Notes under the pieces: generated by a model
The model's input: the letters and a program-made list of their open reading frames with translations, nothing else
Database searches by the model: none
Told to the model about the DNA's origin: nothing
Source of the DNA: Rhynchopus sp. YZ270_cl-10
Lineage: Eukaryota
DNA: 64,000 nt
Assembly (NCBI GenBank): GCA_964035575.1
Contig: OZ037839.1
Span: 1,798,001 to 1,862,000 of the forward strand
Reading direction: 5' to 3'
Part shown: positions 3,394-35,068 of the stretch, piece after piece
Numbering within the stretch: position 1 is the stretch's first letter
Layout: the number at the start of each line of letters is the position of its first letter
Position numbers and translations under genes: made by a program

Positions 3394-4986
3394 ATGGAAC
3401 TGTGTGTGCAGGGATATGATGATGACACCAAATACGTGATTGAGGTGGGTGAGAACGACACAACGGAGACGATGCGGCAGAAGGTGGCGTCTGCAACAGG
3501 GTTGTGCGAAGACAGCTTCCACATGGGCTTCGGAGGGAAGGAGGAAGGAGAGGACATCACAGAACTGAGTGCTGGAGACACAGTCGTGTTGACGAAAACT
3601 ACTAAGTACGCATCTGTTGAAGCACTTCGTGCCTTGGGTGAGACAGACATTTCCGAAGCGAGGTTGGCGACTGTGAAGGATCCTGAGGTGGCTTCTCTGC
3701 TTCTTCAGGCGGAGGTTGCGACTGTTATTCCGAACCGGTTCTTGTCGGAAGCATCGTTTACGAGACTTGATCTCTCTGCTGTGTCTGGGGTGACGCGAAT
3801 TGAGCGTGGATTCCTCTACGGGTGTGCGTCGGTGGAAACCGTTGACTTGTCGGGATTGTGCAACGTTACACACATCAAGGGACTCTTTCTCTCTAGCTGC
3901 ACATCTTTGACAAGCCTCGACGTGTCAGGGTTCACTGGTGTGACGGTGATAGGGAACTCGTTCCTCAAAGAAAGTGGCGTCACAGAGCTTGACTTATCCG
4001 AGATGACGAGTGTGACGACGGTTGGTGACTACTTTCTCCACCGCTGCGAGTCGCTGAAAAGTCTTGACATCTCAGGATGGCGCAGAGTCACGCACATTCA
4101 GGAAGACTTCCTGTCGAGCTGCACCTCGTTGGCAACCATTGATTTGTCAGCTTTTTGCAGTGTCACAAAGATCGACTGCTGCTTTCTCACCTACTGCGAG
4201 TCGTTGACCACCATCAGCTTTTCAGGGATGACCAATGTGACGGAAATTGCGTATGACTTTTGTAGGGGTTGCAAATCGTTGGAAACGATTGACTTGACAG
4301 CACTGCACAGGGTTGTGAAGGTGGGGTACGGCTTTCTTACGAGGTGCACCTCGCTGGGAAGTATCGACCTTTCAGCTTTTGGGAGTGCGACAGATGTTGG
4401 GTTCTACTTTCTTAGTAGCTGTTCATCATTGAAAACAGTTGATTTATCAGTGTTGCGCAGCATCACACACATTGAGCAAAACTGGATGCAAGGGTGCTCC
4501 GCGTTGACAACAGCAGACTTCTCAGGACTGAGCAATGTTAAGAACATTAGTGCACAGTTCCTGCAAGGGTGCACATCCTTGACCACGCTGGACATGTCAA
4601 GTATAGGCTGTGACACGATGATCCAGCACAACTTCCTGGACAACTGCAACGCACTCACAACAGTCGTCTTGCCAGGCAACATCGACATTCACGAGATGTC
4701 TCTCCCGAATGAAGCCCAAGAGAACCATGGCACTGGACTCACGAAGACCTTCGATGCATGTGTGCGTGACATTTACGCAAGGTTTACGGAACAGTTCGGA
4801 GGTGTGCGGACAGAAGATCTGGTACAAACAGACGTGTCTGGAGATGCAAGACAATGTATTGCATTGAGAGCAGGACAAGAAGGAGAAGGTTTGATGCAAG
4901 CACAAGAGGATGAGGACAAGCAGGAACTGGACAAACAGGAGCATGACAAGCAAGGGCATTTGGAGTGCCGGAGACACGCAGAGTGA
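3394..4986 (+). CDS. UBL + BspA-like LRR protein, copy 2 (530 aa)
   Basis: ATG in acaATG context; MELCVQGYDDDTKYVIEVGENDTTETMRQKVASATG...ELSAGDTVVL beta-grasp pattern; 26-aa repeats LxxIDLSxxxxVTxIGxxFLxxCTS. Confidence 0.9.
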   Translation: MELCVQGYDDDTKYVIEVGENDTTETMRQKVASATGLCEDSFHMGFGGKEEGEDITELSAGDTVVLTKTTKYASVEALRALGETDISEARLATVKDPEVASLLLQAEVATVIPNRFLSEASFTRLDLSAVSGVTRIERGFLYGCASVETVDLSGLCNVTHIKGLFLSSCTSLTSLDVSGFTGVTVIGNSFLKESGVTELDLSEMTSVTTVGDYFLHRCESLKSLDISGWRRVTHIQEDFLSSCTSLATIDLSAFCSVTKIDCCFLTYCESLTTISFSGMTNVTEIAYDFCRGCKSLETIDLTALHRVVKVGYGFLTRCTSLGSIDLSAFGSATDVGFYFLSSCSSLKTVDLSVLRSITHIEQNWMQGCSALTTADFSGLSNVKNISAQFLQGCTSLTTLDMSSIGCDTMIQHNFLDNCNALTTVVLPGNIDIHEMSLPNEAQENHGTGLTKTFDACVRDIYARFTEQFGGVRTEDLVQTDVSGDARQCIALRAGQEGEGLMQAQEDEDKQELDKQEHDKQGHLECRRHAE

Positions 4987-5221
4987 CGCCGCCAGCTGCG
5001 CACTGCTCCCTCGAAGCTGCACGACACACACCCTCACAGGCCACTCCTCCCGCAAGCACTGCAGACAAAGCTGGAATCCAACTTTTCAGCCTCTTCCCCA
5101 ATTTACCTTTCGCGCTTTTTTCCCTCCCCCGTTTTAGAATCAACAGAGAGTGTACGTTAAGATGTCTTTCACTGTTTCATATCTCTAGCCTTTTGTGTCT
5201 CAGCACTTCACTTTTTCAATA

Positions 5222-5797
5222 CTGGGTGATTCAGATTGTTGTTATAGTAACCTGGGGGTGTCTCCGAAAAAAGCAAATTTTATTTTTTAGTAACAAACAG
5301 TTTTCCGGTTTTGTTACCTGGTATCTTCTTCCTCCGGATTTTTATATTTTTTATTTTTACAAATAACAGTAACAGTTACCTGGACCTTCTTATAAAATGG
5401 CGCCGCAGGCGAAAAAAAAATCAGGGTACGGTGTAAAAATCTAGCTTTCACACTACCGAGTCACTCAACGAACGCGGAGCAAAAATGAAAAATGGCGCCG
5501 CAGGCAAAGGATTTTATGGTGCGATCAGTTACCCAGGGCCCTCCCGTGGTTCAACTACGGTTCTACCAGGAACTTTTTTTGACCCTCACCACCATCACCA
5601 CATGTCAGGCGAGAGGTGATGTTTTTTTTTCCAATTTTTATTTTACAGTTATCCGGGTTTGTTACCTGGGCCAGATACATTTTTATTTTAATTTTACAAA
5701 AGAATTATGTTGTTACCAAATGGTTGTTACCTGGGGGAAATTTTTGGGGGTAAAATAATTATTTAGTTTTATTTTAACAACTTTATAAATCACCCAG
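5222..5797. mobile_element. MITE with TIRs and TA duplication
   Basis: ta|ctgggtgatt ... aatcacccag|ta, interrupting the tttcaaTAtgcgggtttt motif that is continuous in the other 3' flanks. Confidence 0.8.
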
Positions 5798-6201
5798 TAT
5801 ACGGGTTTTTCGGGTCTTTTTGAGGGCTTCAAAAATAAAGAGAAAGGATGGATACGATGAACAAAGACCAGGACGACAGCAAAATAGAGAACGGGGGTGT
5901 GTTTCATTTTGTTTCACTGTTTCAAGGTGACCAAGCACGAGAGTCCTTCGTTCATCAATAATTATTTCTTCTTTGCTTTTATTCATCGTCTTCACGCTTT
6001 CATCATTGTTGTTGGGTTGGGAAATAAAAACGTTTGCCCCTTTCAAGCATAGTTTGGTACATCTTTACAATGTTTTCAATTTCTCCTTCTGTTAACTATG
6101 GGCCAGTGGAATGAATAAGAAAGCTATTTTGTTGTATCTTGCCTCCCTCCTCCTCCTTCTCAACACTTACCCCACAACAGAGCAACACTTCACTCGAAAC
6201 A

Positions 6202-7815
6202 ATGGAACTGTGTGTGCAGGGATATGATGATGACACCAAATTCGTGATTGAGGTGGGTGAGAAGGACACAACGGAGACGATGCGGCAGAAGGTGGCGTCT
6301 GCAACAGGGTTGTGCGAAGACAGCTTCCGCATGGGCTTCGGAGGGAAGGAGGAAGGAGAGGACATCACAGAACTGAGTGCTGGAGACACAGTCGTGTTGA
6401 CGAAAACTACTAAGTACCAATCTGTTGAAGCACTTCGTGCCTTGGGTGAGACAGACATTTCCGAAGCGAGGTTGGCGACTGTGAAGGATCCTGAGGTGGC
6501 TTCTCTGCTTCTTCAGGCGGAGGTTGCGACTGTTATTCCGAACTTCTTCTTATGCGAAGCATCGTTTACGAGACTTGATCTCTCTGCTGTGTCTGGTGTG
6601 ACACGGATTCAGCAACGCTTCCTCTCCAGGTGTGCGTCGGTGGAAACCGTTGACTTGTCGGGATTGTGCAACGTTACGCACATCGGGCATGAATGTTTCT
6701 ATGCCTGCACATCGTTGACAAGCCTTGACGTGTCAGGGTTCACTGGTGTGACGGTGATAGGGAACACGTTCCTAGGAGGAAGTGGCGTCACAAAGCTTGA
6801 CTTATCCGCGATGACGAGTGTGACGAAGGTTGGGAGGCGCTTCCTCTCCCACTGCGAATCGTTGGAAACTCTCGACATCTCAGGATGGCGCAGAGTCACG
6901 CACATTGAAGACGGCTTCCTCAAGAACTGCACCTCGTTGGCAACCATTGATTTATCAGCTTTTTGCAGTGTCACGAAGATCGGCTCCGACTTTCTCTCCA
7001 ACTGCTGGTCGTTAACCACCATCAGCTTTTCAGGGATGACCAATGTGACGGACATTGGGAACAGCTTTTGTGTGGACTGCACCTCGTTGGAAACGATTGA
7101 CTTGACAGCACTGCACAGGGTTGTGAAGGTGGGTTACGGCTTTCTTACGAGGTGCAACTCGCTGACAAGTATCGACCTCTCAGCTTTTGGGATTGTCAGA
7201 GACATTGGTGTCTGCTTTCTTATTCACTGTTCATCATTGAAAACAGTTGATTTATCAGTGTTGCGCAGCATCACACACATTGAGCAAAACTGGATGCAAG
7301 GGTGCTCCGCGTTGACAACAGCAGACTTCTCAGGACTGAGCAATGTTAAGAACATTAGTGCACAGTTCCTGCAAGGGTGCACATCCTTGACCACGCTGGA
7401 CATGTCAGGTATAGGCTGTGACACAAGGATCCAGCACAACTTTCTGGACAACTGCAACGCACTCACAACAGTCGTCTTGCCAGGCAACATCGACATTCAC
7501 GAGATGTCTCTCCCGAATGAAGCCCAAAAGAACCATGGCACTGGACTCACGAAGCTTGCATGTGTGCGTGACATTTACGCAAGGTTTACGGAACAGTTCG
7601 GAGGTGTGCGGACAGAAGATCTAGTACGAACAGACGTGTCTGGAGATGTAAGACAATGTATTGCATTGAAAGCAGGACAAGAAGGAGAAGGTTTGATGCA
7701 AGCACAAGAGGACGAGGACAAGCAGGAACTGGACAAACAGGAGCATGACAAGCAAGGGCATTTGGAGGGTTTGGGTCCGGGACAGGCTGCAGCGATGTTG
7801 TGTCGAGCACAGTGA
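6202..7815 (+). CDS. UBL-LRR copy 3 (537 aa), ends ...MLCRAQ
   Basis: Intact ORF with a framework near-identical to copy 2. Confidence 0.9.
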   Translation: MELCVQGYDDDTKFVIEVGEKDTTETMRQKVASATGLCEDSFRMGFGGKEEGEDITELSAGDTVVLTKTTKYQSVEALRALGETDISEARLATVKDPEVASLLLQAEVATVIPNFFLCEASFTRLDLSAVSGVTRIQQRFLSRCASVETVDLSGLCNVTHIGHECFYACTSLTSLDVSGFTGVTVIGNTFLGGSGVTKLDLSAMTSVTKVGRRFLSHCESLETLDISGWRRVTHIEDGFLKNCTSLATIDLSAFCSVTKIGSDFLSNCWSLTTISFSGMTNVTDIGNSFCVDCTSLETIDLTALHRVVKVGYGFLTRCNSLTSIDLSAFGIVRDIGVCFLIHCSSLKTVDLSVLRSITHIEQNWMQGCSALTTADFSGLSNVKNISAQFLQGCTSLTTLDMSGIGCDTRIQHNFLDNCNALTTVVLPGNIDIHEMSLPNEAQKNHGTGLTKLACVRDIYARFTEQFGGVRTEDLVRTDVSGDVRQCIALKAGQEGEGLMQAQEDEDKQELDKQEHDKQGHLEGLGPGQAAAMLCRAQ

Positions 7816-9087
7816 GGAACGGCCAGCAGAGGAAGTCAGTGGTTGAAGCCCGTCCGAAACACTTGCAGTGCGACCCACAGGAGGATTCCCGCAAGTGGTG
7901 GAGACACGGAGAGTGACGCCGCCAGCTGCGCACTGCGACCTCTAAACTGCACGAGAGAGGCTTAGGTTGATCCCATATGCATAATATTACATTTCAAGTG
8001 CAATACGCGTTCTTCGGATGTCACGAGTCTTACTGTTTCCCCTTCCCCCCTTTTGTGTGTCAGCACCTTACTTTTTCAATATGCGGGTTTGTCGGGTTTT
8101 CTCTTCGTGTTGTTTTCCTTATCAGTATTTTCTTTCCCTACGACCGTTGTGTTTGTGCCCAACCCCAGCCCCCTTTTGTTTTTGCAACCTACTGAATATA
8201 AGAAAGGGTATCTTATGTTTAACTTTTAGCTTTATCTAAAGACTCTGTACAGATGATACAATAGATAAACCCTTGGTACCAGGTGCTTGGTACATAAGAC
8301 GCCAGGTTCTATGATAAGCACGGAACCACCCTGCGCCTGTTTGTCATGTTGTTTCCCGTGCAATACACTCACCTACTAAGTCTCGAAAAATCTTTTTGAT
8401 AAAAAATGAACGAAGCACAAAAACCAGCGCGTGTGGAAGAAAAAAGAAAAGGGAAAATATTTTTTTCTGATTCAAAGTGGTGTTTATGTTTTGGGTACGG
8501 GGCGGAGAATAAAATCTGTTCGATAAAAGAAACGCAAGCTTTTTGTTTTATCTTTTTTAGTAGTTATATGTGGGAAATCTTTTATACAGGGGGAGTGTGC
8601 TATTTGGCCCCCCCAGTAATCTTTTGCAAACAGCAACACAAAAATGCCCCCTATTTTTTCTACTCAAAGAACTGGACACTCTGCTTTAGGTGTTTTTGTT
8701 TTGTGTGTTCTGTGTTGTTTTGCAGTGCCTGCGTCCGATGAACGGTGAGGCGTTTGCACTTTTGAACGTCTCTTTTGCACTCTGTTCTGCACTCTCTCGT
8801 CGATGCATGAATACAACATGAGTGTGTACTTTGTGTTCCCACTTAGAGTTCTCGTGATCCATGGGTTGGACAGTGCACTTTAGGTTCTCTTGGGGGCAGC
8901 GAAGTGTGCTTGTGTGTGGAGAAGCCAACTTTGCCCCCTTTCAAGTATGGTTAGGTTCGTCTTTACAGTATTTTCCATTTCTCTCTTCTCACAACCGGCA
9001 AGTGAAACAAATAAGAAAGCTATTTTGCTGCATCTCCTCCTCCTTCTCAACACCACCCCAAAACAGAGCAACACTTCACTCGAAACA

Positions 9088-10722
9088 ATGGAACTGTGTG
9101 TGCAGGGATATGATGATGACACCAAATTCGTGATTGAGGTGGGTGAGAAGGACACAACGGAGACGATGCGGCAGAAGGTGGCGTCTGCAACAGGGTTGTG
9201 CGAAGACAGCTTCCGCATGGGCTTCGGAGGGAAGGAGGAAGGAGAGGACATCACAGAACTGAGTGCTGGAGACACAGTCGTGTTGACGAAAACTACTAAG
9301 TACGAATCTGTTGAAGCACTTCGTGCCTTGGGTGAGACAGACATTTCCGAAGCGAGGTTGGCGACTGTGAAGGATCCTGAGGTGGCTTCTCTGCTTCTTC
9401 AGGCGGAGGTTGCGACTGTTATTCCGAACTTCTTCTTGCGCGAAGCATCGTTTACGAGACTTGATCTCTCTGCTGTGTCTGTTGTGACACGCATTCAGCA
9501 GCGCTTCCTCTACGGGTGTGCGTCGGTGGAAACCGTTGACTTGTCGGGATTGTGCAACGTTACGCACATCGGGAAATACTGTCTCTCTCGCTGCACATCC
9601 TTGAGAAGCCTTGACGTGTCAGGGTTCACTGGTGTGACGGTGATAGGGGAGTCTTTCCTCCCAGATAGTGGCATCACAGAGCTTGACTTATCCGCGATGA
9701 CGAGTGTGACGACCGTTGGTACGTACTTTCTTCTCAACTGCGAGTCGTTGGAAAGTCTCGACATCTCAGGATGGCGCAGAGTCACGCACATTGAGGAATG
9801 CTTCCTCACGAACTGCACCTCGTTGTCCAGCGTTGATTTGTCAGCTCTTTGCAGTGTCACGAAGATCGGCTCCGATTTTCTCATCAACTGCACGTCGTTG
9901 ACCACCATCAGCTTTTCAGGGATGACCAATGTGACGGAAATTGAGGACAACTTTTGTATGGACTGCACCTCGTTGGAAACGATTGACTTGACAGCACTGC
10001 ACAGGGTTGTGAAGGTGGGTTACGGCTTTCTTACGAGGTGCACCTCGCTGGGAAGTATCGACCTTTCAGCTTTTTGCAGTGCGACAGAAGTTGGGCACAG
10101 CTTTCTGTTGCAGTGCTCATCATTGCAAACAGTTGATTTATCAGTGTTGCGCAGCATCACACACATTGAGCAAAACTGGATGCAAAGGTGCTTCGCGTTG
10201 ACAACAGCAGACTTCTCAGGACTGAGCAATGTTAAGAGCATTAGTGCACAGTTCCTGCAAGGGTGCCTATCCTTGACCACGCTGGACATGTCAGGTATAG
10301 GCAGTGATACAAGGATCCAGCACAACTTTCTGGACAACTGCAACGCACTCACAACAGTCGTCTTGCCAGGCAACATCGACATTGACGAGATGTCTCTCCC
10401 GAATGAAGCCCAAAAGAACCATGGCACTGGACTCACGAAGACCTTCGATGCATGTGTGCGTGACATTTACGCAAGGTTTACGGAACAGTTCGGAGGTGTG
10501 CGGACAGAAGATCTGGTACGAACAGACGTGTCTGGAGATGCAAGACAATGTATTGCATTGAAAGCAGGACAAGAAGGAGAAGGAGTGACGCCGCCAGCTG
10601 CGCACTGCTCCCTCGAAGCTGCACGACGCACACCCTCACAGGCCACTCCTCCCGCAAGCACTGCAGACAACAGAGCTGGAATCGCTGCTGCACAGCGTAC
10701 TGGCAGCCCTACAATATCATGA
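9088..10722 (+). CDS. UBL-LRR copy 4 (544 aa), ends ...GSPTIS
   Basis: Intact ORF, same framework. Confidence 0.9.
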   Translation: MELCVQGYDDDTKFVIEVGEKDTTETMRQKVASATGLCEDSFRMGFGGKEEGEDITELSAGDTVVLTKTTKYESVEALRALGETDISEARLATVKDPEVASLLLQAEVATVIPNFFLREASFTRLDLSAVSVVTRIQQRFLYGCASVETVDLSGLCNVTHIGKYCLSRCTSLRSLDVSGFTGVTVIGESFLPDSGITELDLSAMTSVTTVGTYFLLNCESLESLDISGWRRVTHIEECFLTNCTSLSSVDLSALCSVTKIGSDFLINCTSLTTISFSGMTNVTEIEDNFCMDCTSLETIDLTALHRVVKVGYGFLTRCTSLGSIDLSAFCSATEVGHSFLLQCSSLQTVDLSVLRSITHIEQNWMQRCFALTTADFSGLSNVKSISAQFLQGCLSLTTLDMSGIGSDTRIQHNFLDNCNALTTVVLPGNIDIDEMSLPNEAQKNHGTGLTKTFDACVRDIYARFTEQFGGVRTEDLVRTDVSGDARQCIALKAGQEGEGVTPPAAHCSLEAARRTPSQATPPASTADNRAGIAAAQRTGSPTIS

Positions 10723-10777
10723 CATGTACGACAGTTTGTGTGGAGAGAGGCTTAGGTTGATCTCATAAACATTTCAA

Positions 10778-10972
10778 GTGCAATACGCGTTTTCGGATGT
10801 CACGAGTCTTACTGTTTCCCCTTCCCCCCTTTTGTGTCTCAGCACCTTACTTTTTCAATATGTGGGTTTTCGAGGGTTTTTTGGGGGTTTCAAAAATAGA
10901 GAGAAAGGATGGATACGATGAACAAAGAGCAGGACGACAGCAAAATAGAGAACGGGGGTGTGTTTCATTTTT
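10778..10972 (+). repeat. Diverged relic of YR-retrotransposon terminal repeats (A+B) in the LRR 3' flank; also at ~2165, 5185, 7998 (partial), 14172, 17830, 22514, 37302, 63755
   Basis: cgcgttttcggatgtcacgagtcttactgtttccccttcccccc...ggatggatacgatgaacaaa...gggggtgtgtttcatttt aligns with the reverse complement of 28602-28764 plus 24711-24772. Confidence 0.7.
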
Positions 10973-11663
10973 ATTGACTGTTTCAAGGTAACCAAACACC
11001 AGATACTTCAGTTTATCTGAACGTTTCTTTCTATGAAGCTATATACTGGGAGCCCCTTTCACACTGCAACTTATTCCCCAACCGGACGCTGCATCACACA
11101 GGACTCATGACCCTTTGTCTCCAATGATAGTCGTTCTGCCCGTGACTGCACAGAGCTGACACACTCGTTGAGTGCCTCACAAAACCTCAAATTATTTCCT
11201 TCTTGGTGGTGGAGACTACGCAAATATGGACTGTACAAAGCTCTCTGATAAGAAAGCCAATCAACCCTGTTTGCAGGATTAAGCAAGTTAATATTATTAA
11301 TCCATAGGAACGCATGGCCTGGGTAGCCACCGTTCTGAAGCTACATTCTGAAAACAAATTACTTTTATGACATCGATTTTACAAATGTACACGACAACTG
11401 ATTTGTGCGTGTGTGATTTTAAACGCAGTGGAATGTTTTTTACTTTCAAGTTTTGTGTGGATGGCAAGTGCGCGAACCGTGGGCGAGCTGAGCCATGATT
11501 TATAGGGACCCTGCTACGAAATAATAGTGGCCATTTATGGGTATAAATAGGTGTGTGTTCTAGTTTGATCCGTTGTAAGAACACTTCGAAGCCCCGCCCT
11601 GTGCATGTGCTCGACTACTGTCCGCGTTTTTAGCACCTTTCATTTTCATTTGCTTTTATTTTA

Positions 11664-11890
11664 TTTTGTACGAGTATGCAATACGTCTGGAAATGAAAGA
11701 CGCGCTCGTCGGTTGTCATGAGTTTTACCGTTTCCCCCTTCCCCCCTTGTGCTCCACCTCTCCACCGTACTTAAGGACGCAGGTTTCTTCGGGGGTTTTC
11801 GGGACTTATGGGGTTTCAAAAAAAAAGGATGGATGCGATCAACAAACAACAAACAACGAATATATAAAGAAGTGGGGCTATTTCTATTTT
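11664..11890 (+). mobile_element. Solo A-B terminal repeat of the YR retrotransposon
   Basis: ttttgtacgagtatgcaatacgtctggaaatgaaagacgcgctcgtc...ggatggatgcgatcaacaaacaacaaacaacgaa closely matches the reverse complement of repeats A and B, fused with no coding region. Confidence 0.85.
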
Positions 11891-12384
11891 CTGGAGAGGA
11901 ACCCTTGCTCCTACTGATGAGATGCTGCCGGGGGTTCAGAGAACGTGGTATAGGAGCAGGCAGCTCGAAACCACAAAGTTTTGTTGTCAGCCCACGGCCT
12001 GCTAAGAGGACCCGTGCTACACAATTAGGGAAAGGTGTACTGGCTGTACCCTATTTGTTCAGTTGCAAAAAAACAAAAAAAAAATAAAGACAAAAAAGAG
12101 GAGACGACGCTGGTGGAAAACTCTATCTTTGGATTGAAAAGAATATCTTAATCATTCTTTGCTTTTATTCATCGTCTTCACACTTTATCATTGTTGTTGG
12201 GTTGGGAAATAAAAACGTTTACCCCTTTCAAGCATGCTTAGGTTCATCTTAAAAATGTTCTCCAAATCTCTCTTCTCACTAGCGTCAAGTGAAATAAACA
12301 AGAAAGCTATTTTGTTGTATCTTGCCCCCCTCCTCCTCCTTCTCAACACTTACCCCAAAACAGAGCAACACTTCACTCGAAGCA

Positions 12385-13995
12385 ATGGAACTGTGTGTGC
12401 AGGGATATGATGATGACATCAAATTCGTGATTGAGGTGGGTGAGAAGGACACAACGGAGACGATGCGGCAGAAGGTGGCGTCTGCAACAGGGTTGTGCGA
12501 AGACAGCTTCCACATGGGCTTCGGAGGGAAGGAGGAAGGAGAGGACATCACAGAACTGAGTGCTGGAGACACAGTCGTGTTGACGAAAACTACTAAGTAC
12601 CAATCTGTTGAAGCACTTCGTGCCTTGGGTGAGACAGACATTTCCGAAGCGCGGTTGGCGACTGTGAAGGATCCTGAGGTGGCTTCCCTGCTTCTTCAGG
12701 CGGAGGTTGCGACTGTTATTCCTGGCGGGTTCTTGAGCGCAGCATCGTTTACGAGACTTGATCTCTCTGCTGTGTCTGGTGTGACGCGAATTGAGGACGG
12801 CTTCCTCGGCGGGTGTGCGTCGGTGGAAACTGTTGACTTGTCGGGATTGTGCAACGTTACGCACATTGGCGGTGCCTTTCTCTCTAGCTGCACATCGTTG
12901 ACAAGCCTCGACGTGTCAGGGTTCACTGGTGTGACGGTGATAGGGAACTCGTTCCTCAAAGAAAGTGGCGTCACAGAGCTTGACTTGTCCGCGATGACGA
13001 GCGTGACGACGGTTGGTCCGTACTTTCTTCTCACCTGCGAGTCGTTGCAACGTCTTGACATCTCAGGATGGCGCAGAGTCACGCACATTGAGGACTACGT
13101 CCTCGCGAACTGCACCTCGTTGGCAAGCATTGATTTGTCAGCTTTTTGCAGTGTCACGAAGATCGGCTCCGACTTTCTCTTCAACTGCACGTCGTTGACC
13201 ACCATCAGCTTTTCGATGACCAATGTGACGGAAATTGGGAACGGGTTTTGTTTGCACTGCACCTCGTTGGAAACGATTGACTTATCAGCACTGCACAGGG
13301 TTGTGAAGGTAGGTCACACCTTTCTTGCGAGGTGCACCTCGCTGGGAAGTATCGACCTTTCAGCTTTTGGGAGTGCGACAGACGTTGGGCACAGATGTCT
13401 CAGTAACTGTTCATCATTGAAAACAGTTGATTTATCAGTGTTGCGCAGCATCACACACATTGAGCAAAACTGGATGGAAGGGTGCTCCTCGTTGACAACA
13501 GCAGACTTCTCAGGACTGAGCAATGTTAAGAACATTAGTGCACAGTTCCTGCAAGGGTGCACATCCTTGACCACGCTGGACATGTCAGGTATAGGCAGTG
13601 ACACAAGAATCCAGCACAACTTTCTGGACAACTGCAACGCACTCACAACAGTCGTCTTGCCAGGCAACATCGACAAGATGTCTCTCCCGAATGAAGCCCA
13701 AAAGAACCATGGCACTGGACTCACGAAGACCTTCGATGCATGTGTGCGTGACATTTACGCAAGGTTTACGGAACAGTTCGGAGGTGTGCGGACAGAAGAT
13801 CTGGTACGAACAGACGTGTCTGGAGATGCAAGACAATGTATTGCATTGAAAGCAGGACAAGAAGGAGAAGGTTTGATGCAAGCAGAAGAGGACGAGGACA
13901 AGCAGGAACTGGACAAACAGGAGCATGACAAGCAAGGGCATTTGGAGGGTTTGGGTCCGGGACAGGCTGGAGCGATGTTGTGTCGAGCACAGTGA
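12385..13995 (+). CDS. UBL-LRR copy 5 (536 aa), ends ...MLCRAQ
   Basis: Intact ORF with small in-frame deletions. Confidence 0.9.
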   Translation: MELCVQGYDDDIKFVIEVGEKDTTETMRQKVASATGLCEDSFHMGFGGKEEGEDITELSAGDTVVLTKTTKYQSVEALRALGETDISEARLATVKDPEVASLLLQAEVATVIPGGFLSAASFTRLDLSAVSGVTRIEDGFLGGCASVETVDLSGLCNVTHIGGAFLSSCTSLTSLDVSGFTGVTVIGNSFLKESGVTELDLSAMTSVTTVGPYFLLTCESLQRLDISGWRRVTHIEDYVLANCTSLASIDLSAFCSVTKIGSDFLFNCTSLTTISFSMTNVTEIGNGFCLHCTSLETIDLSALHRVVKVGHTFLARCTSLGSIDLSAFGSATDVGHRCLSNCSSLKTVDLSVLRSITHIEQNWMEGCSSLTTADFSGLSNVKNISAQFLQGCTSLTTLDMSGIGSDTRIQHNFLDNCNALTTVVLPGNIDKMSLPNEAQKNHGTGLTKTFDACVRDIYARFTEQFGGVRTEDLVRTDVSGDARQCIALKAGQEGEGLMQAEEDEDKQELDKQEHDKQGHLEGLGPGQAGAMLCRAQ

Positions 13996-14605
13996 GGAAC
14001 GGCCAGCAGAGGAAGTCAGTGGTTGAAGCCCGTCCCAAACGCAGTGCGACCCACAGGAGGATTCCCGCAAGTGGTGGACACGCAGAGTGACCCCGCCAGC
14101 TGCGCACTGCGACCTCTAAACTGCACGAGAGAGGCTTAGGTTGATCCCATATGCATAATATTACATTTCAAGTGCAATACGCGTTCTTCGGATGTCACGG
14201 GTCTTACTGTTTCCCCTTCCCCCCTTTTGTGTCTCAGCACCTTACTTTTTCAATATGCGGGTTTTCGGGTCTTTTGGGGGTTTCAAAAATAAAGAGAAAG
14301 GATGAATACGATGAACAAAGAGCAGGACGACAGCAAAATAGAGAACGGGGGTGTGTTTCATTTTGTTTACACTCTCAACACTTACACGACGGCAGAATAG
14401 ACGCGGGTGTATTTCACCCTTTCAAGGTGACCTAGCACGAGAGGCTTACGATCATCTTATGAACCTTTCTTTCCATGAAGTTGTATACTGGGAGCCCCTT
14501 TCACACGTGTTCTGCGCAAGAATTTCCCTCACAAGCCATCCCCACTCCACACCTACAACACGCCATCACAGACACCCTGCGACCCACCTTGCATATTGTC
14601 TAACA

Positions 14606-15160
14606 ATGCAGGTTTCGATACACGCAAAGACTCTGGACGTGACTGCGGTGGTGGACGTTGGTCCTGAGGAGACCATAGGCGGGCTGACTGCGATGGCGGT
14701 GAAGGCGTTGCAGTGCGAAGAGGCGTGCTACCTTTGCTTTGGCGGGGTTGCGCTGCACGACCGTACGGTGTGTGTACGCGACGTGGGGGCGGAGGCTGGG
14801 GATGTGTTTGCTCTGCACTTTTGCGTCGAGCTTCCGGAGTGCAGGATTGCAGGGAGGTATGAGTGCAGAGACTATGACTCTGGGGGGAAGAACGACTGGC
14901 ACTACGTCACCATCAGCGACCTTGATGGGCCCACAGCAGACCACAAGGCGCGTGCCCTCTGGCGCAACCGTGCACAGGTCCAATGGGAGCTGACCGCAAC
15001 CGAAAACCCAGACGTCTACGACGTGTCACAGCACTGCCCGTATCACAGCTCAGGGCACACAACGCTTGCAGTGACGCGCTGTCCAAGCAGTGGTGCTGTG
15101 CAGCACATCGCTGGCCCCTGGGGTGAGCTGTACAAAAGGCAGGACGAGTTTTCGGAGTGA
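14606..15160 (+). CDS. Small protein: N-terminal UBL plus unknown beta-rich C-terminal domain (184 aa)
   Basis: MQVSIHAKTLDVTAVVDVGPEETIGGL...LCFGGVALHDRT...GAEAGDVFAL ubiquitin-like pattern; GC-rich coding bias; duplicated at 22962. Confidence 0.8.
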   Translation: MQVSIHAKTLDVTAVVDVGPEETIGGLTAMAVKALQCEEACYLCFGGVALHDRTVCVRDVGAEAGDVFALHFCVELPECRIAGRYECRDYDSGGKNDWHYVTISDLDGPTADHKARALWRNRAQVQWELTATENPDVYDVSQHCPYHSSGHTTLAVTRCPSSGAVQHIAGPWGELYKRQDEFSE

Positions 15161-16133
15161 AAATAATGTCGTTTTTGAGGATTTCGGTCTGTACCCTAGC
15201 CCTTCTCAGGATGGCGTTGGGTGCAAATACTGTGTTTTTATCAAAAAAACAAACACTTTCCGTCCACAGTAACCATGTACCGGGCAATAGGCAGGGTGCA
15301 TTCATGAAGGAGTCTTGTGTTAGTCGCACTGTTCTGGGTGTGATAAATGTTTTAACACCAGTGCCTGTCGGCCGATGAACGGTGAGGCCTGGTTGCACTT
15401 TGAACGTCTCTCTTTTCAATGGTGATGAAATACGATTTCAAACTGACTGAGTAAATACACCACAAACGTCAGTTCTTTTCTTTGTCTTGTTTTTCCTTGT
15501 CCAGTATTTTCTTTCCCTCCCACCATTGTTGTGACATTGTGTTTGTGCCCAACCCCGGCCCCCTTTTGTTTTCGCAACCTACCCTACAATGGCCCTGGCT
15601 CCTTCTGATGAGTGCGGTCAGATACTCAAAATCGTTAAAGCAATCTGTTTCTCCTTCATCTTTTGCAAACAGCAACGCAAACATGCCCCCTTTTTTTGAG
15701 TAGAGTACTGGACACTCTGCTTTGGGTGTTTTTGTTTTGTGTGTTCTGTGTTGTTTTGCAGTGCCTGCGTCCGATGAACGGTGAGGCGTTTGCACTTTTG
15801 AACGTCTCTTTTGCACTCTGTTCAGCACTCTCTCTTCGATGCATGAATACAACATCAGTGTGTACTTTGTGTTCCCACTTAGAGTTCTCGTGATCCATGG
15901 GTTCGACAGTGCACTTTAGGTTCCTTTGTAGGCAGCGAAGTGTGCTTGTGTGTGGAGAAGCCAACTTTGCCCCCTTTCAAGCATGGTTAGGTTCATCTTC
16001 AAAATATTTGCCATTTCTCTCTTTTCACAACCGTCAAGTGAAACTAAAAAGAAAGCTATTTTGTTGTATCTTGCCTCCCTCCTCCTCCTTCTCAACACTT
16101 ACCCCAAAACAGAGCAGCACTTCACTCGAAACA

Positions 16134-17774
16134 ATGGAACTGTGTGTGCAGGGATATGATGATGACACCAAATTCGTGATTGAGGTGGGTGAGAAGGACA
16201 CAACGGAGACGATGCGGCAGAAGGTGGCGTCTGCAACAGGGTTGTGCGAAGACAGCTTCCACATGGGCTTCGGAGGGAAGGAGGAAGGAGAGGACATCAC
16301 AGAACTGAGTGCTGGAGACACAGTCGTGTTGACGAAAACTACTAAGTACGCATCTGTTGAAGCACTTCGTGCCTTGGGTGAGACAGACATTTCCGAAGCG
16401 AGGTTGGCGACTGTGGAGGATCCTGAGGTGGCTTCTCTGCTTCTTCAGGCGGAGGTTGCGACTGTTATCCCTGCTGGGTTCTTGTGCAGAGCATCGTTTA
16501 CGAGACTTGATCTCTCTGCTGTTTCTGGTGTGACGCGGATTGAGCGCAACTTCCTCTTCAGACGTTCGAGGCTGGAAACCGTTGACTTGTCGGGATTGTG
16601 CAACGTTACGCACATCGAGAATGGCTGTCTCTTTGACTGCCCATCGTTGACAAGCCTTGACGTGTCAGGGTTCACTGGTGTGACGGTGATAGGGAACTCG
16701 TTCCTCCAAGAAAGTGGTCTCACAGAGCTTGACTTATCCGCGATGACGAGTGTGACGATGGTTGGTAGGTACTTTCTTTTCAACTGCAAGTCGTTGCAAA
16801 GTCTTGACATCTCAGGATGGCGCAGAGTCACGCACATTGAGAACAACTTCCTGTCGAAGTGCACCTCGTTGGCAAACATTGATTTGTCAGCTTTTTGCAG
16901 TGTCACGAAGATCGGCTCCGACTTTCTCCGCAACTGCACGTCGTTGACCACCATCAGCTTTTCAGGGATGACCAATGTGACGGACATTGGGAAGAACTTT
17001 TGTGCGGACTGCACCTCGTTGGAAACGATTGACTTGACAGCATTGCAAAAGGTTGTGAAGGTGGAATACGGCTTCCTTTGGGGGTGCACCTCGCTGGGAA
17101 GTATCGACCTTTCAGCTTTTGCCAGTGCCACAGACATCCGGCACGGTTTTCTCAGTCACTGCTCATCATTGAAAACAGTTGATTTATCAGTGTTGCGCAG
17201 CATCACACACATTGAGCAAGGGTGGATGCAAGGGTGCTCCGCGTTGTCAACAGCAGACTTCTCAGGACTGAGCAATGTTAAGAACATTAGTGCACATTTC
17301 CTGCAAGGGTGCACATCCTTGACCACGCTGGACATGTCAGGTATAGGCTGTGACACGCCGATCGGCAATCACTTCCTGGACAACTGCAACGCACTCACAA
17401 CAGTCGTCTTGCCAGGCAACATCGACATTCACGAGATGTCTCTCCCGAATGAATCCCAAAAGAACCATGGCTTTGGCGTCACGAAGACCTTCGATGCATG
17501 TGTGCGTGACATTTACGCAAGGTTTACGGAACAGTTCGGAGGTGTGCGGACAGAAGATCTGGTACGAACAGACGTGTCTGGAGATGCAAGACAATGTATT
17601 GCATTGAAAGCAGGACAAGAAGGAGAAGGAGTGACGCCGCCATCTGCGACTGCGCACTGCTCCCTCGAAGCTGCACGACGCACACCCTCACAGGCCACTC
17701 CTCCCGCAAGCACTGCAGACAACAGAGCTGGAATCGCTGCTGCACAGCTTACTGGCAGCCCTACAATATCATGA
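16134..17774 (+). CDS. UBL-LRR copy 6 (546 aa)
   Basis: Intact ORF, same framework. Confidence 0.9.
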   Translation: MELCVQGYDDDTKFVIEVGEKDTTETMRQKVASATGLCEDSFHMGFGGKEEGEDITELSAGDTVVLTKTTKYASVEALRALGETDISEARLATVEDPEVASLLLQAEVATVIPAGFLCRASFTRLDLSAVSGVTRIERNFLFRRSRLETVDLSGLCNVTHIENGCLFDCPSLTSLDVSGFTGVTVIGNSFLQESGLTELDLSAMTSVTMVGRYFLFNCKSLQSLDISGWRRVTHIENNFLSKCTSLANIDLSAFCSVTKIGSDFLRNCTSLTTISFSGMTNVTDIGKNFCADCTSLETIDLTALQKVVKVEYGFLWGCTSLGSIDLSAFASATDIRHGFLSHCSSLKTVDLSVLRSITHIEQGWMQGCSALSTADFSGLSNVKNISAHFLQGCTSLTTLDMSGIGCDTPIGNHFLDNCNALTTVVLPGNIDIHEMSLPNESQKNHGFGVTKTFDACVRDIYARFTEQFGGVRTEDLVRTDVSGDARQCIALKAGQEGEGVTPPSATAHCSLEAARRTPSQATPPASTADNRAGIAAAQLTGSPTIS

Positions 17775-18280
17775 CATGTACGACAGTTTGTGTGGAGAGA
17801 GGCTTAGGTTGATCTCATAAACATTTCAAGTGCAATACGCGTTTTCGGATGTCACGAGTCTTACTGTTTCCCCTTCCCCCCTTTTGTGTCTCAGCACCTT
17901 ACTTTTTCAATATGCGGGTTTTGGAGGGTTTTTCGGGTTTTCAGGTCTTTTGGGGGGTTCAAAAATAAAGAGAAAGGATGGATACGGAGAACAAAGAGCA
18001 GGACGACAGCAAAATACAGAACGGACCGAACTTATTCCCCAATCGGAGGCTCCATCACACATGACTCATGACACTTTGTCTCCAATGATCGTATTATGGA
18101 TTTTGGGATTTCAACTAAGGATTGCCCTTGGCGAAGGACTTCAGTACAGACTCAAAGTCCCCGTATCTTGGTGTGGGTACGAGGACCTTGGATACTAACG
18201 TCATTTCTTCAAACACATTTTGTCCCCCCTCATCTCCCTCACCCCCCGAAGACGAATCAAAATAAATCAAAAAAGACACA

Positions 18281-20018
18281 ATGTTGAAGCTGATGTGCGC
18301 CACCTTCGTGGCAGCCGCCTCCGCGCAGGTCACTCCTGCTCTTCTCAAGACCCATCCGCACCTTGCCGCTTATAAGAACGTCGATTTCAATGCCAAGCGT
18401 TACACCCTGCGTGCGACACACCCGGAGCAGATTCATATTGCGTATGCTGGGCAGTCTGCAGAGGGTTACCCCACAGGGATCAACGCAGCGTGGGTGTACA
18501 AGGAGAAGGATGGGTGTGTGCTTGAATACGGAACGGACAGTGCGATGCACAATGAATCGGTTACTCCGCACTCTGGACGGTACCTCGACGAAGGGTCGTA
18601 CCACTGGAATGTTGATGTGCTTGATCTGGTGCCGGCTACGCTCTACCATTACCGCGTCAAATGCGGTTCTGCTGCCTCAGCAAACTTCACCTTCACCTCC
18701 GCAGCGAACGGAAAGGATCTGGGTCGTCCCTTCAACATCAACCTCTTCGGGGATATGGGGTATCTGGGAAGCGCAGAGAGGCCGATGATCCTCGATGTCG
18801 GCGGTCTGAAGAAACATTGGTCTGCCGTTCCCACCCGCGAAACGCAGCAAAGGTTTTTTGAAGCAGGAGAAACCGATATGATGTGGATCGTAGGCGACAT
18901 TGGCTACGCTGACGATGCGTTTGCACACGATGTGGTAGGAGGACTGTACGAGAAATGCTACGACGGATTCATGAACTGGTTTCAGAACATCACTGCAAGC
19001 ATCCCTTTTCACGTTTCCCCTGGAAACCACGAATCCGAATGCCACTCTGCGGAGTGCGTGATCGACCGCTTCCTTGGCGAGTACCTCGGAAACTTCTCTG
19101 CATACACTAACAGATTCCATATGCCCAGCCCCTCTTCGGGTGGAGTCGCAAACATGTGGTACTCCTGGAACACTGGTCCCGTTCATTTCGTCTCGTTGAA
19201 CACCGAAACCGATTTTGAAGGTGCCGGAGAGGGGCACTCAGGCTGGTATTGTACAGGGTTCTATGTTTTGCATGCAAATGCTAAAAGAGGAAATTGAACA
19301 CCGTACCTCAACTCCATTCTATTTTGGAGCAGATTGGAGCAGAGCCACATATCACCGAGAGGTCGAGGTGCGCTTCACCATTTTTTTTTTTGTCTTTCTT
19401 GCCGTTCTCATTTTAGGGGTGGGTAAAACACAATAAACGGAGTTCGCGGTGTTTCAATTTTCCTCCTAAGCCTTGGCACACATTTATCTTGAAATTTCTC
19501 TAATCCTTAATGTTCTTCGCATGCACCCAGAACTCATCAATAACTCTGTTGTCTCCGATGGAGGAGACGAGCCTCCACTGCATTGCAGTTTCGTTAGCGA
19601 TGGTCAGCCACCCGGTCGACATTTCCGAGGTCGCAAAGATGCCTACGGATGAGTTCGCTGTCGGGCCTGTTGTGATGTAGTCAGTTTCGTCGTTGCCAGC
19701 CCCACCACAGAAGACGTAGGAGGTTGGATAGGTGACGTTTGTCTGCGCATGGCAGACGGGGGGCTCGCATGCTTCGACGGAGCGTGCGTAGGTGTGTGCG
19801 TGCCCTGCGACGAAGATGTCTACCTCGTATTTGTCGAACAAGCTCTGCAGAATGGCGGGCTGGCAGCACGGCCTATGCCCGCCCACCACGATGAAGTTCC
19901 GCAGCCCCGCCCTCTTGTCTGCAAGCGCCTTTTCCAAATCAGCCTCAAGCCACGCAAGGTACTCCCCCTGCCTCCCAAAGCTGCCTGCAGCGTAGGCGTC
20001 ACCGTCGCCTCTCTTCTC
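18281..20018 (+). pseudogene. Purple acid phosphatase copy broken by an internal inversion (19232-20018)
   Basis: 5' part matches 37866-38816; the 3' coding half with the GH and GHxH motifs is on the minus strand at 19500-20018. Confidence 0.9.
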
Positions 20019-20823
20019 GCCAAGGGTGCTCAGGAGAAGCCACGCAAGAGAAGCAGTGTGTCGCTCAGGGCCGTATTTCACGACGAAGGTGCCCTCGAGG
20101 GGAGCAGGCTCCTGTCAAAGTCCACGGAACGTGACGGGGTGTCCGCAGCCTCGCCGCAGTGGAGGTGGGCAGCCGACTTCAGGAACTTTTCTCGATGGAG
20201 ATCCCAGCGTCTGAGGAGATACTACTTCCCATCAGCGTGTAAAAGCGTTCACAACCCAGAAGAGGAAGAACCCCCCAGTTCAGCGTGCAAGGCTTCCAGG
20301 CTCGACCAGCTGAGGCGATGGCGTCGAAGAGCGGGTCATTTCGGATCTCGTGGAAAGCAGGACATACCCAGAAGATGTGCTCGTTTGTGTTTTTTATTCG
20401 CTTTCTTTTCTTCTCCCTCACACCTTGTTGTCGTGAAATGTATTATTTTGTTGTTGTTGTTTCCCTAGTCGCATACGCGAGTTTTCCTGGTAGCGCAAGA
20501 AAATGACTGGGGAGTGTTGGTGGCTCCGTGACGCCACAGAGCCGGCACACTCGTTGAGTGTCTCACAAAACCTCAAATTATTTCTTCTTTGCTTTTATAT
20601 ATCGTCTTCACGCTTGTATCATTGTTGTTGGCTTGGGAAATAATAACGTATCCACGTTTCAAGCATGCTTAGGTTCATCTTCAAATCTTAAAATTATTTT
20701 CCATTTCTCTCTTCTCGCAACCGTCAAGTGAAACAAATAAGAAAGCTATTTTGTTGTATCTTGCCTCCCTCCTCCTCCTTCTCAACACTTACCCCAAAAC
20801 AGAGCAACACTTCACTCGAAACA

Positions 20824-22458
20824 ATGGAACTGTGTGTGCAGGGATATGATGATGACACCAAATTCGTGATTGAGGTGGGTGAGAAGGACACAACGGAGAC
20901 GATGCGGCAGAAGGTGGCGTCTGCAACAGGGTTGTGCGAAGACAGCTTCCGCATGGGCTTCGGAGGGAAGGAGGAAGGAGAGGACATCACAGAACTGAGT
21001 GCTGGAGACACAGTCGTGTTGACGAAAACTACTAAGTACGCATCTGTTGAGGAACTTCGTGCCTTGGGTGAGACAGACATTTCCGAAGCGAGGTTGGCGA
21101 CTGTGAAGGATCCTGAGGTGGCTTCTCTGCTTCTTCAGGCGGAGGTTGCGACTGTTATTCCTGCCAAGTTCTTGATCGAAGCATCGTTTACGAGACTTGA
21201 TCTCTCTGCTGTGTCTGGTGTGACACGTATTGAGGACGGCTTCCTCTCCGGGTGTGAGTCGGTGGAAACTGTTGACTTGTCGGGATTGTGCAACGTTACG
21301 CACATTGGCGGTGCCTTTCTCTCTGCCTGCACATCGTTGACAAGCCTTGACGTGTCAGGGTTCACTGGTGTGACGGTGATAGGGAACACGTTCCTAGGAG
21401 GAAGTGGCGTCACAAATCTTGACTTATCCGCGATGACGAGTGTGACGACGGTTGGTCCGTACTTTCTTCTCAACTGCGAGTCGTTGCAACGTCTTGACAT
21501 CTCAGGATGGCGCAGAGTCACACACATTGAGGACTACGTCCTCGCGAACTGCACCTCGTTGGCAAACATTGATTTGTCAGCTTTTTGCAGTGTCACGAAG
21601 ATCGGCTCCGATTTTCTCTTCAACTGCACGTCTTTGACCACCATCAGCTTTTCAGGGATGACGAATGTGACGGAAATTGGGAACGGGTTTTGTTTGAACT
21701 GCACCTCGTTGGAAACGATTGACTTGACAGCACTGCAAAAGGTTGTGAAGGTAGGTCACACCTTTCTTGCGAGGTGCCCCTCGCTGGCAAGTATCGACCT
21801 CTCAGCTTTTGGGAGTGCGACAGACGTTGGGCACAGATTTCTCAGTCACTGTTCATCATTGAAAACAGTCGATTTATCAGTGTTGCGCAGCATCACACAC
21901 ATTGAGCAACACTGGATGGAAGAGTGCTCCGCGTTGACAACAGCAGACTTCTCAGGACTGAGCAATGTTAAGAACATTAGTGCACAGTTCCTGCAAGGGT
22001 GCACATCCTTGACCACGCTGGACATGTCAGGTATAGGCTGTGACACAAGGATCCAGCACAACTTCCTGGACAACTGCAACGCACTCACAACAGTCGTCTT
22101 GCCAGGCAACATCGACATTGACGAGATGTCTCTCCCGAATGAAGCCCAAAAGAACCATGGCACTGGACTCACGAAGACCTTCGATGCATGTGTGCGTGAC
22201 ATTTACGCAAGGTTTACGGAACAGTTCGGAGGTGTGCGGACAGAAGATCTGGTACGAACAGACGTGTCTGGAGATGCAAGACAATGTATTGCATTGAAAG
22301 CAGGACAAGAAGGAGAAGGAGTGACGCCGCCAGCTGCGCACTGTTCCCTCGAAGCTGCACGACGCACACCCTCACAGGCCACTCCTCCCGCAAGCACTGC
22401 AGACAACAGAGCTGGAATCGCTGCTGCACAGCTTACTGGCAGCCCTACAATATCATGA
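20824..22458 (+). CDS. UBL-LRR copy 7 (544 aa)
   Basis: Intact ORF; closest to copy 5. Confidence 0.9.
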   Translation: MELCVQGYDDDTKFVIEVGEKDTTETMRQKVASATGLCEDSFRMGFGGKEEGEDITELSAGDTVVLTKTTKYASVEELRALGETDISEARLATVKDPEVASLLLQAEVATVIPAKFLIEASFTRLDLSAVSGVTRIEDGFLSGCESVETVDLSGLCNVTHIGGAFLSACTSLTSLDVSGFTGVTVIGNTFLGGSGVTNLDLSAMTSVTTVGPYFLLNCESLQRLDISGWRRVTHIEDYVLANCTSLANIDLSAFCSVTKIGSDFLFNCTSLTTISFSGMTNVTEIGNGFCLNCTSLETIDLTALQKVVKVGHTFLARCPSLASIDLSAFGSATDVGHRFLSHCSSLKTVDLSVLRSITHIEQHWMEECSALTTADFSGLSNVKNISAQFLQGCTSLTTLDMSGIGCDTRIQHNFLDNCNALTTVVLPGNIDIDEMSLPNEAQKNHGTGLTKTFDACVRDIYARFTEQFGGVRTEDLVRTDVSGDARQCIALKAGQEGEGVTPPAAHCSLEAARRTPSQATPPASTADNRAGIAAAQLTGSPTIS

Positions 22459-24381: not shown

Positions 24382-24684
24382 CTGGGGGGGGGGCGAATAA
24401 GAGATCAGGGGTGAATAAGAGATCAGGGCCGAATAAGAGATCAGGTTGAGATTTTGGGGGTATTTTTTTTTTTTTTTTTTGCATGCGCCAGGGTTTTATC
24501 TTGAAATTTTTTTTTGAAATTTTACCCTGTCTACCCGGTCTGGCAAAAAAGTGGTCAAAATATTTTTTTTGCCTCCGGCGAAAATGTCTTTTTGCTTTTT
24601 TTCCCCCAAAAATTTTTTTTTATTTCTGGCTCGTCCGTTCGCCTAATAAGAGATGCCACATCTCTTATTCGCCCCCCCCCCCAG
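24382..24684. mobile_element. ~300 bp MITE, copy 1
   Basis: ta|ctggggggggggcgaataagagat ... atctcttattcgccccccccccag|ta; near-identical copy at 29106-29406. Confidence 0.85.
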
Positions 24685-31028: not shown

Positions 31029-31036
31029 CCCAAAAC

Positions 31037-34984: not shown

Positions 34985-35068
34985 GTTGACGAAAACTACT
35001 AAGTACGTATCTGTTGAAGCACTTCGTGCCTTGGGTGAGACAGACATTTCCGAAGCGAGGTTGGCGAC

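Follow-up and report, generated by a model that had tools for sequence, protein, structure and literature searches.

Large, clustered families of BspA-like leucine-rich repeat (LRR) proteins (PF13306) have been described in the protists Trichomonas vaginalis and Entamoeba, with CaaX tails in Entamoeba. For T. vaginalis, 911 BspA-like proteins were reported and positive selection was suggested, without being tested there (PMC2843621). Here, members of a very large clustered family of the same LRR class are described from a 64,000-nt stretch of Rhynchopus sp. YZ270_cl-10 (OZ037839.1, positions 1,798,001 to 1,862,000), termed the window in the following, whose positions are used as coordinates; the study region spans 3394-22458. 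In contrast to the BspA-like proteins, this family has an additional N-terminal ubiquitin-like domain (UBL) and a helical cap, its repeat of 25 aa has FL instead of AF, it lacks a signal peptide and a transmembrane (TM) segment, and selection was shown codon by codon. The word "ubiquitin" does not occur in the main text of PMC2843621. The general kind of protein is known; the architecture is new, the variable face is unusual, and new insertion sites resemble those of the retrotransposon hot spot (RHS) genes.

The LRR-ROCO and NB-ARC-TPR candidate receptors of Ectocarpus are likewise clustered repeat proteins from outside the animals and plants; they evolve by birth and death and by shuffling of repeats, under positive selection at specific sites, but their selected sites are on the concave face, their repeats are exons and they carry a GTPase or NB-ARC domain (PMC3341825). 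The window genes are intronless, their selected sites are outside the concave strand and the UBL is the only other domain. A constant module of the ubiquitin system or of signalling combined with a positively selected binding domain is found in the F-box and BTB-MATH adaptors of nematodes and plants, concerted evolution with hypervariable codons in the repeats of the fungal HNWD NOD-like receptors, and a B-box and coiled coil with a variable C-terminal domain in TRIM5. F-box, BTB, NACHT and RING were not found in the window family, in which the constant module is the UBL. Large repertoires with two hypervariable residues per repeat and some F-box fusions are known for the FNIP/FGxxFN LRR proteins of giant viruses and Dictyostelium (PMC9525666). 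The trypanosome RHS proteins are also a euglenozoan multigene family with a conserved N-terminus, a variable C-terminus, mosaic genes and a fixed site of retroelement insertion in the 5′ coding region (PMC7563717), and Crinklers carry Ubl headers (PMC5289972). In comparison to both, the host protein is unrelated (LRR, no NTPase or REase), two hot spots are present, and RHSP or Crinkler Pfam families were not listed; the combination of an NTPase with a REase or toxin domain, typical for Crinkler-RHS proteins, was absent from the window copies.

Variable codons and selection in the LRR

Using the first copy as BLAST query, nine UBL-LRR copies were identified in the window, all on the + strand, and all analyses on the DNA level refer to these nine. 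Seven are intact (C1-C6 and C8) and two are interrupted (C0 and C7). Each copy consists of the UBL, the helical cap and 13 LRR repeats (24-25 aa each), followed by a tail, of which there are several types. The initial annotation had assigned nine copies to the study region, which applies to the whole window only: six (C1-C6) are located within 3394-22458, and two of the others are split by retroelements. The 13 repeats, the nine sequences of repeat 2 (EYNFLQG, ERGFLYG, QQRFLSR to QHNFLHG) and the codons following FL in repeat 7 (cgc, acc, tcc, atc, ttc) were reproduced exactly.

Positions were numbered from the F of the motif I-xxx-FL-xx-C. The nonsynonymous diversity (pN) was 0.36 at position −2, 0.44 at −1, 0.48 at +2 and 0.28 at +3, whereas it was 0.15-0.18 at −3 and +5 and 0-0.095 in the canonical strand (LxxLDLS). 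Of the x positions originally described as variable, four are thus strongly so, while −3 is weaker. For the UBL and cap, pN was 0.013 and the synonymous diversity (pS) 0.014, which agrees with the near identity claimed to include synonymous sites; the LRR framework agrees less well (pN 0.041, pS 0.104, nucleotide identity 93.0-96.5%). The variation was also said to affect every repeat, but it is uneven, with low pN in repeats 12 and 13 (0.09 and 0.12). In 557 repeats of 108 more distant paralogs, collected with a regular expression, the same four positions were the most variable (3.2-3.65 bits), compared to 1.9-2.4 bits for the two unconstrained concave positions; positions −14 and −12 were fixed by the expression and are excluded from this comparison. 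Y, W, F and H account for 18% of the residues at the four positions in this set. A total of 645 distinct four-residue signatures was found in 725 repeats.

For the 52 core codons (the positions −2, −1, +2 and +3 in 13 repeats, chosen after the variation had been seen), pN/pS was 0.387/0.177 = 2.19 with a bootstrap range over repeats of 1.67-3.30. This value was reached in none of the 150 simulations under each of four neutral models (independent genealogy per codon at two rates, 20% doublet mutations, star tree), the maximum being 1.39, and in 89 and 101 of 150 simulations with an omega of 6 and 10, respectively. The comparison of M1a and M2a over all 322 LRR codons resulted in a 2dlnL of 172 and an omega of 5.8 for 14.6% of the codons, a result that is inflated by recombination; the site models (M1a, M2a, M8a, M8) were run with our own code, naive empirical Bayes and one fixed tree. 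Of the 25 codons with a posterior >0.95, 22 are at −2, −1, +2 or +3, and none is in repeats 9, 12 or 13. Although the core positions were chosen post hoc, the site model picked out the four offsets unaided. The variable binder under diversifying selection that had been proposed, with an omega above 1 at the variable sites, is hence supported by pN/pS, by M2a and by the neutral recombining simulations, and diversifying selection plus exchange between copies is regarded as highly probable.

Pairs of codons at the 52 core sites differ at base 1 in 848 of 1872 cases, at base 2 in 687 and at base 3 in 394, so that the third base is least often different, consistent with the reported two-base changes with a retained third base. 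Changes of bases 1+2 and of bases 2+3 occur in a ratio of 106:26; this ratio is about 1:1 in the neutral and doublet simulations and 2.4-2.8:1 in those with selection. The retained base is specific for the site and can be C, G, T or A. Because it differs by site and adenines are not preferentially variable, the retention is mostly the footprint of dN far above dS and not of a mutator like that of diversity-generating retroelements (DGR); selection needs no such mutator.

The copies read as fine-grained mosaics. Four-gamete incompatibility is about 50% at all distances for 49 informative sites outside the variable codons (Rm 25), to which homoplasy may add, the nearest-neighbour copy switches between repeats, and synonymous diversity is 0.151 adjacent to the variable codons but 0.023 at distances of more than 11 codons. 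This pattern fits short-tract exchange among paralogs, with old variants kept at the selected codons. A permutation test for recombination by distance gave no significant result (p 0.93, 0.48 and 0.16), because incompatibility is high at all distances. Two 9-nt patches recur at different repeat numbers, the longest matches being 14 nt; with such matches in nine copies, copying between different repeat numbers was not established. The relative P0006 from another contig has several patches in common with C1 but three repeats fewer, and repeat number varies among close relatives.

Over single-copy genes, short-read contigs from two studies agree with the window at every position. A 108-bp piece covering the private repeat-3 patch of C1 was found letter for letter in both studies at single-copy depth. 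Among the runs, X1 may be the source of the assembly itself and X3 is the one independent run; the bins 3885-3916 (X2, X4) and 4237-4268 (X1, X4) lack exact cover, and such gaps prove nothing. The variants are therefore real and at least the C1 repeat-3 patch is stable, and no sign of ongoing or templated diversification was seen in these data (no adenine bias; C1 private patch identical across the two studies).

Two alternatives concern the origin of the variable codons. That they are written by targeted or somatic hypermutation, DGR-like or templated, is the least probable of all explanations considered. DGRs produce changes of the first two bases with a retained C, which was counted for this explanation together with the recurring 9-nt patches, but four-fold sites with a majority of A are the least polymorphic (2/23, compared to 8/22 for T, 8/34 for G and 6/23 for C), the site-specific third base and the identical C1 patch do not fit, and no template repeat was found in the window. 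An assembly artefact is very unlikely as well, and so is relaxed constraint acting on exposed loops. Although the four positions are free x positions of the TpLRR consensus (PMC2946307) and two copies are pseudogenes, the neutral maximum stays below the observed pN/pS, the changes are in frame and codon-phased, and independent short-read contigs match the variable patches letter for letter. Both the relaxed-constraint and the artefact explanation are largely refuted by the neutral simulations, M2a and the short-read match.

Fold, UBL and wider family

In the three copies scanned, the Pfam family LRR_5 (PF13306) was detected with 94-104 bits (cut-off 27.7), while the ubiquitin family stayed below its cut-off. 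A single-sequence model was poor outside the LRR. The model based on an alignment of 123 sequences (pLDDT 89.4, pTM 0.80) comprises a beta-grasp fold (residues 2-68), helices (70-105) and a regular solenoid (about 110-430). The best structural match is the TpLRR-type structure 4FS7 (Z 29.6, rmsd 3.6, 342 aligned residues), and the top five (4FS7, 4GT6, 4FDW, 4CP6 and 4H09; Z 29.6-22.0), with matches covering residues 70-480, all have the TpLRR solenoid fold. The FL of the repeat aligns with the AF of 4GT6 and of the TpLRR consensus LxxLxLxxxLxxIgxxAFxxC (23-25 aa), of which the window repeat is a variant with FL and two extra residues. The LRR is thus of the BspA/TpLRR type.

In the TpLRR consensus, segment positions 3-5 are on the concave face and the convex face is formed by other secondary structures (PMC2946307). 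With FL aligned to AF, the variable residues should therefore be outside the concave strand, by standard geometry on the convex or flanking side. Only 2 of the 25 selected codons fall into the concave strand, where classical LRR immune receptors are hypervariable. The solenoid is predicted with confidence and the variable residues have the same register in each of its turns, so that a single stripe is expected.

The N-terminal domain is a type II UBL according to the beta-grasp fold of the model and to PF00240, which was listed for 27 of 28 UBL-bearing sequences (11 above the cut-off). UBL residue n aligns to ubiquitin residue n-1. Among 123 proteins, the Ile44-equivalent is G in 62, S in 45, T in 7 and R in 4, with an aliphatic or aromatic residue in only one; the Arg42-equivalent is variable, whereas a hydrophobic residue is kept at the Leu8-equivalent. 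None of the 123 has a di-Gly after the UBL, as a ubiquitin-fusion precursor would. The UBL is strongly acidic (16 D/E and 5 K/R); elsewhere on its surface, motifs are nearly invariant in these proteins, as is the cap, which suggests one fixed partner bound in a non-canonical way. Shuttles of the Rad23/Dsk2 type use the Ile44 patch (Leu8-Ile44-Val70).

The homology search identified 608 proteins. Family figures refer to the best 120, as the remaining 488 may include unrelated BspA proteins. Of these 120, 119 are from ENA or the window; they show 38-87% identity and are located on contigs of 39 different lengths (0.19-2.2 Mb; counted by hand). The family appears to be lineage-restricted with at least about 120 proteins, and its members probably come from one genome, because the fragments of long interspersed nuclear elements (LINE) found with them are 98-100% identical to those of the window. 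A phmmer search with the first 118 residues against 1.84 billion representatives gave 144 matches, consisting of the family, followed by plain ubiquitins and few unrelated proteins; of ten that were looked up, nine are from ENA and the tenth is a UBL of Rhynchopus euleeides that lacks an LRR. A pattern scan of JGI metagenomes, IMG/VR and GTDB confirmed no relatives, and Atlas matches for the N-terminal part were all under 0.9. A divergent UBL-plus-cap homologue (38%), possibly from another organism, is P0329 on a 976-bp ENA contig; a weak search with this sequence found no relatives of greater length.

The expected absence of a signal peptide and TM segment was found for all seven intact copies (maximum Kyte-Doolittle 19-mer 1.34-1.67, N-terminal ≤0.29), so that the hydrophobic segment expected for a membrane-anchored surface adhesin is present in none of them. 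The term cytosolic used in the initial annotation is compatible with an intracellular site, but too narrow for the wider family, which has CaaX and NLS-like tails. A Cys at position −4, as in a CaaX tail, was found in 27 of 119 proteins, mostly as CSVS or CVCM and mostly in two tail lineages, so that these cases are not independent. A loose basic-tail pattern resembling a bipartite nuclear localization signal (NLS) was found in 40 of 119, and a hydrophobic C-terminus above a Kyte-Doolittle value of 1.9 in one of 119. In all four relatives of this kind scanned, B-box-like domains precede a predicted coiled coil and the LRR, with the UBL between them in three. The B-box was above the cut-off in one of the four, RING was listed in none and the coiled coil was judged by eye, and these relatives thus appear to lack the combination of RING, B-box and coiled coil that defines TRIM proteins. 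The relatives P0301, P0305, P0307, P0355, P0379 and P0380 have a B-box, a predicted coiled coil, mostly a UBL, and the LRR, some with hydrophobic C-termini.

No description of a UBL-LRR family was found in the literature covered, which did not include subscription journals. The main text of the Diplonema papillatum genome paper makes no mention of LRR, BspA or ubiquitin, and BspA/PF13306 is absent from seven of its supplementary files, with four of the six leucine-rich annotation rows inspected; the main text of a 2026 diplonemid preprint does not mention LRR, BspA or ubiquitin either.

Proposed function and alternative explanations

The recognition of intracellular parasites, symbionts and giant viruses by free-living protists is largely unknown, and the family is a large, testable candidate repertoire for it in a marine protist, probably a cultured diplonemid, with binding positions that are predicted to be marked exactly by selection. 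Diplonemids include symbiont-bearing species. A constant UBL and cap combined with a stripe of fast-changing residues is the design of an arms-race adaptor. Since there is no export signal and the tails point to membrane and nucleus, intracellular detection is the simplest reading, and we give even chances to the UBL-LRR proteins acting as intracellular sensors of bacterial or viral invader proteins. The four exposed positions per repeat would bind proteins of the invader, and a presumed single host partner would receive the bound targets through the constant UBL and cap. This partner would bind the conserved acidic surface of UBL and cap and not the Ile44 patch, and would more likely belong to the ubiquitin system or to signalling than be a directly docked proteasome. 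The diversity would be generated in the germ line through a birth-and-death process of point mutation, selection and either gene conversion or unequal crossing-over, without a mutator, while CaaX tails may direct subfamilies to membranes and basic tails to the nucleus.

Several observations weigh against this sensor function. The variation is predicted to be outside the concave strand, unlike in classic immune LRRs; Ectocarpus ROCO proteins and variable lymphocyte receptors vary on the concave strand (PMC3341825). The observed ratio of 4.1 for the two kinds of two-base changes is above that of the selection simulations (2.4-2.8), which indicates an incomplete model fit. Without Ile44 patch and di-Gly, the putative link to the ubiquitin system would be one of fold alone. 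Furthermore, a Ubl header in the absence of a true signal peptide is also typical of Crinkler-RHS proteins, which reach host nuclei (PMC5289972), and the known BspA families of protists are read as surface adhesins (PMC2843621).

The proteins could also be offensive effectors, which we consider possible but rather doubtful: the UBL would be a Crinkler-like header for delivery into prey or host, the variable LRR would bind host proteins, and the CaaX and NLS tails would exploit the targeting of the host. Predation occurs among diplonemids, as does opportunistic parasitism on lobsters, clams and plants (PMC8061765), and the insertion hot spot described below parallels the Crinkler-RHS class. P0317, a fusion of the family UBL and an unrelated domain that has a Walker-A-like motif, would fit as well. 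Yet Crinkler or RHS Pfam families were listed at E≤1 for none of the 28 UBL-bearing sequences, in contrast to the 27 with the ubiquitin family, the window copies have no enzymatic toxin domain beside the LRR, and no delivery route is evident. The routing to the proteasome proposed initially, in which the UBL would dock to ubiquitin receptors of the proteasome with a target bound by the LRR, is unlikely. What remains of it is the type II UBL, nearest to the ubiquitin family and hydrophobic at the Leu8-equivalent, whereas the G/S/T/R at the Ile44-equivalent, the variable Arg42-equivalent, the acidic surface and the missing di-Gly speak against such docking. Surface adhesins or prey and kin recognition proteins with unconventional export, like BspA in Trichomonas and Entamoeba, are quite improbable. 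They would share the LRR class and the very large clustered family, a few relatives have hydrophobic C-termini, and a CaaX-bearing BspA protein of Entamoeba was shown at the cell surface (PMC2843621), but the intact copies lack signal peptide and TM segment, and the N-terminal UBL, the NLS-like tails and the B-box forms suggest an intracellular site.

Going beyond the sensor reading, we tentatively propose that a free-living euglenozoan built a cell-autonomous innate repertoire from a bacterial-type adhesin repeat, with RHS-like turnover by retrotransposons. Hundreds of binders may have diversified opposite the classical LRR face, placed at the membrane, in the nucleus and in the cytosol, with TRIM-like oligomeric forms, and all might report through one non-canonical UBL. 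With gene-specific retrotransposons colonising this repertoire, the RHS arrangement might have originated a second time, independently. In addition, the family points to a natural binding surface on the non-concave side of the TpLRR, which would be useful for the interpretation of BspA proteins and as a binder scaffold.

Retrotransposon insertions, gene copies and neighbouring features

Two insertion sites were identified, site A at the end of the UBL and site B at codon 93. In C0, a 559-bp insertion at site B (72-630, +) is flanked by a 22-bp target-site duplication (50-71 and 631-652). C7 carries a 1740-bp 5′-truncated LINE at site A (33245-34984, +) and a 657-bp insertion at site B (35069-35725, +), each with an 18-bp target-site duplication. 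The open reading frame (ORF) remnant of the LINE (33263-34915) corresponds, at 69% identity, to the C-terminal part of P0290, a protein with a reverse transcriptase (RT). The site-B insertions of C7 and C0 have about 60-70 bp of their 3′ end in common.

Among 138 fetched representatives (Rhynchopus row dropped), 95 family matches were found, of which 43 break off before position 125. Fifteen breaks are at 67-74 and eight at 89-95, seven of them exactly at 93, compared to 7.6 expected for both intervals (P 1e-7; the choice of intervals was post hoc, and a domain boundary coincides with site A). The sequence after the break in P0281, P0290, P0306, P0314 and P0323 matches the LINE of the window at different truncation points, and P0324, P0326, P0331 and P0338 start with its 3′ end, joined at codon 65-66. 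One LINE family thus accounts for six 5′ and four further 3′ junction records at codons 66-72, counted at E≤1e-3 from a permissive search. In pairwise comparison, C7 and four of the 5′-junction hosts share 47-88% identity, but each of them has an intact paralog of its own with 88-100% identity. As the hosts are mutually divergent and each is close to its own intact paralog, this indicates independent insertions of one LINE family at the UBL end, in six divergent paralogs or more. An RHS-type hot spot, with one coding position hit independently by retroelements in many paralogs, is thus present, as in the trypanosome RHS genes (PMC7563717) but in an unrelated gene. The site-B element of C0 is also present in P0293 and P0297, whose hosts are 54-64% identical to C0. 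Beside trypanosome RHS, this would be a second multigene family of protein-coding genes targeted by retrotransposons, and the LINE is a candidate target-specific element.

In P0290 the UBL is fused in frame to the RT ORF of the site-A LINE, which could be translated from the host start codon. P0249, located on the 418,955-bp contig of the window, has a family UBL identical to an intact copy; at site A this UBL continues in frame into an ORF of 1230 aa that includes an OTU protease domain and is probably a retroelement ORF1. The order UBL-OTU is like that of OTU1.

All copies are encoded on the + strand. C1 (3394-4986) encodes 530 aa, with the UBL at about 3394-3597, the helical cap at about 3601-3717 and the LRR at about 3721-4683. 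It is followed by the intact copies C2 (6202-7815), C3 (9088-10722), C4 (12385-13995), C5 (16134-17774) and C6 (20824-22458), and by C8 (61973-63565). C2 and C4 end with CRAQ, a CaaX-like terminus with Cys at −4 in C2, and C4 is nearest to C6 at the variable sites (90% nucleotide identity). C0 (<1-1965) starts upstream of the window and is broken at codon 93, its LRR part (631-1965) being still open. C7 (33033-36974) is broken into the pieces 33033-33244, 34985-35068 and 35726-36974.

Short inverted-repeat elements upstream of C1 (2690-2750 and 3205-3290) are possibly ends of miniature inverted-repeat transposable elements. The regions 15247-20018 and 32154-39605 are a segmental duplication with an LRR gene and a purple acid phosphatase, whose copy at 18281 is truncated with an inverted segment. 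Other genes with a UBL-like N-terminal segment by eye are at 14459-15160, 22962-23516 and 47136-48275; they represent a duplicated small gene and a TPR protein, with weak or absent Pfam support. Overlapping RT and tyrosine-recombinase ORFs (RVT_1, Phage_integrase) at 25079-28735 (−) and 26890-28278 (−), surrounded by terminal repeats near 24374-24680 and 29098-29404, represent a DIRS/TATE/VIPER-like retrotransposon. Simple tandem repeats at 30509-31312 are read as a spurious TQY/STVQY ORF. An Rfam scan gave no matches. Very high summed contig depth in public runs marks 58342-59009 as a common interspersed repeat and was also found for 56338-57339, part of a multicopy cyclase-like gene (55934-57811) without a Pfam match. 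The intronless GH95 gene at 58998-61448, whose named relatives are bacterial (about 30-35% identity), is a candidate for horizontal transfer.

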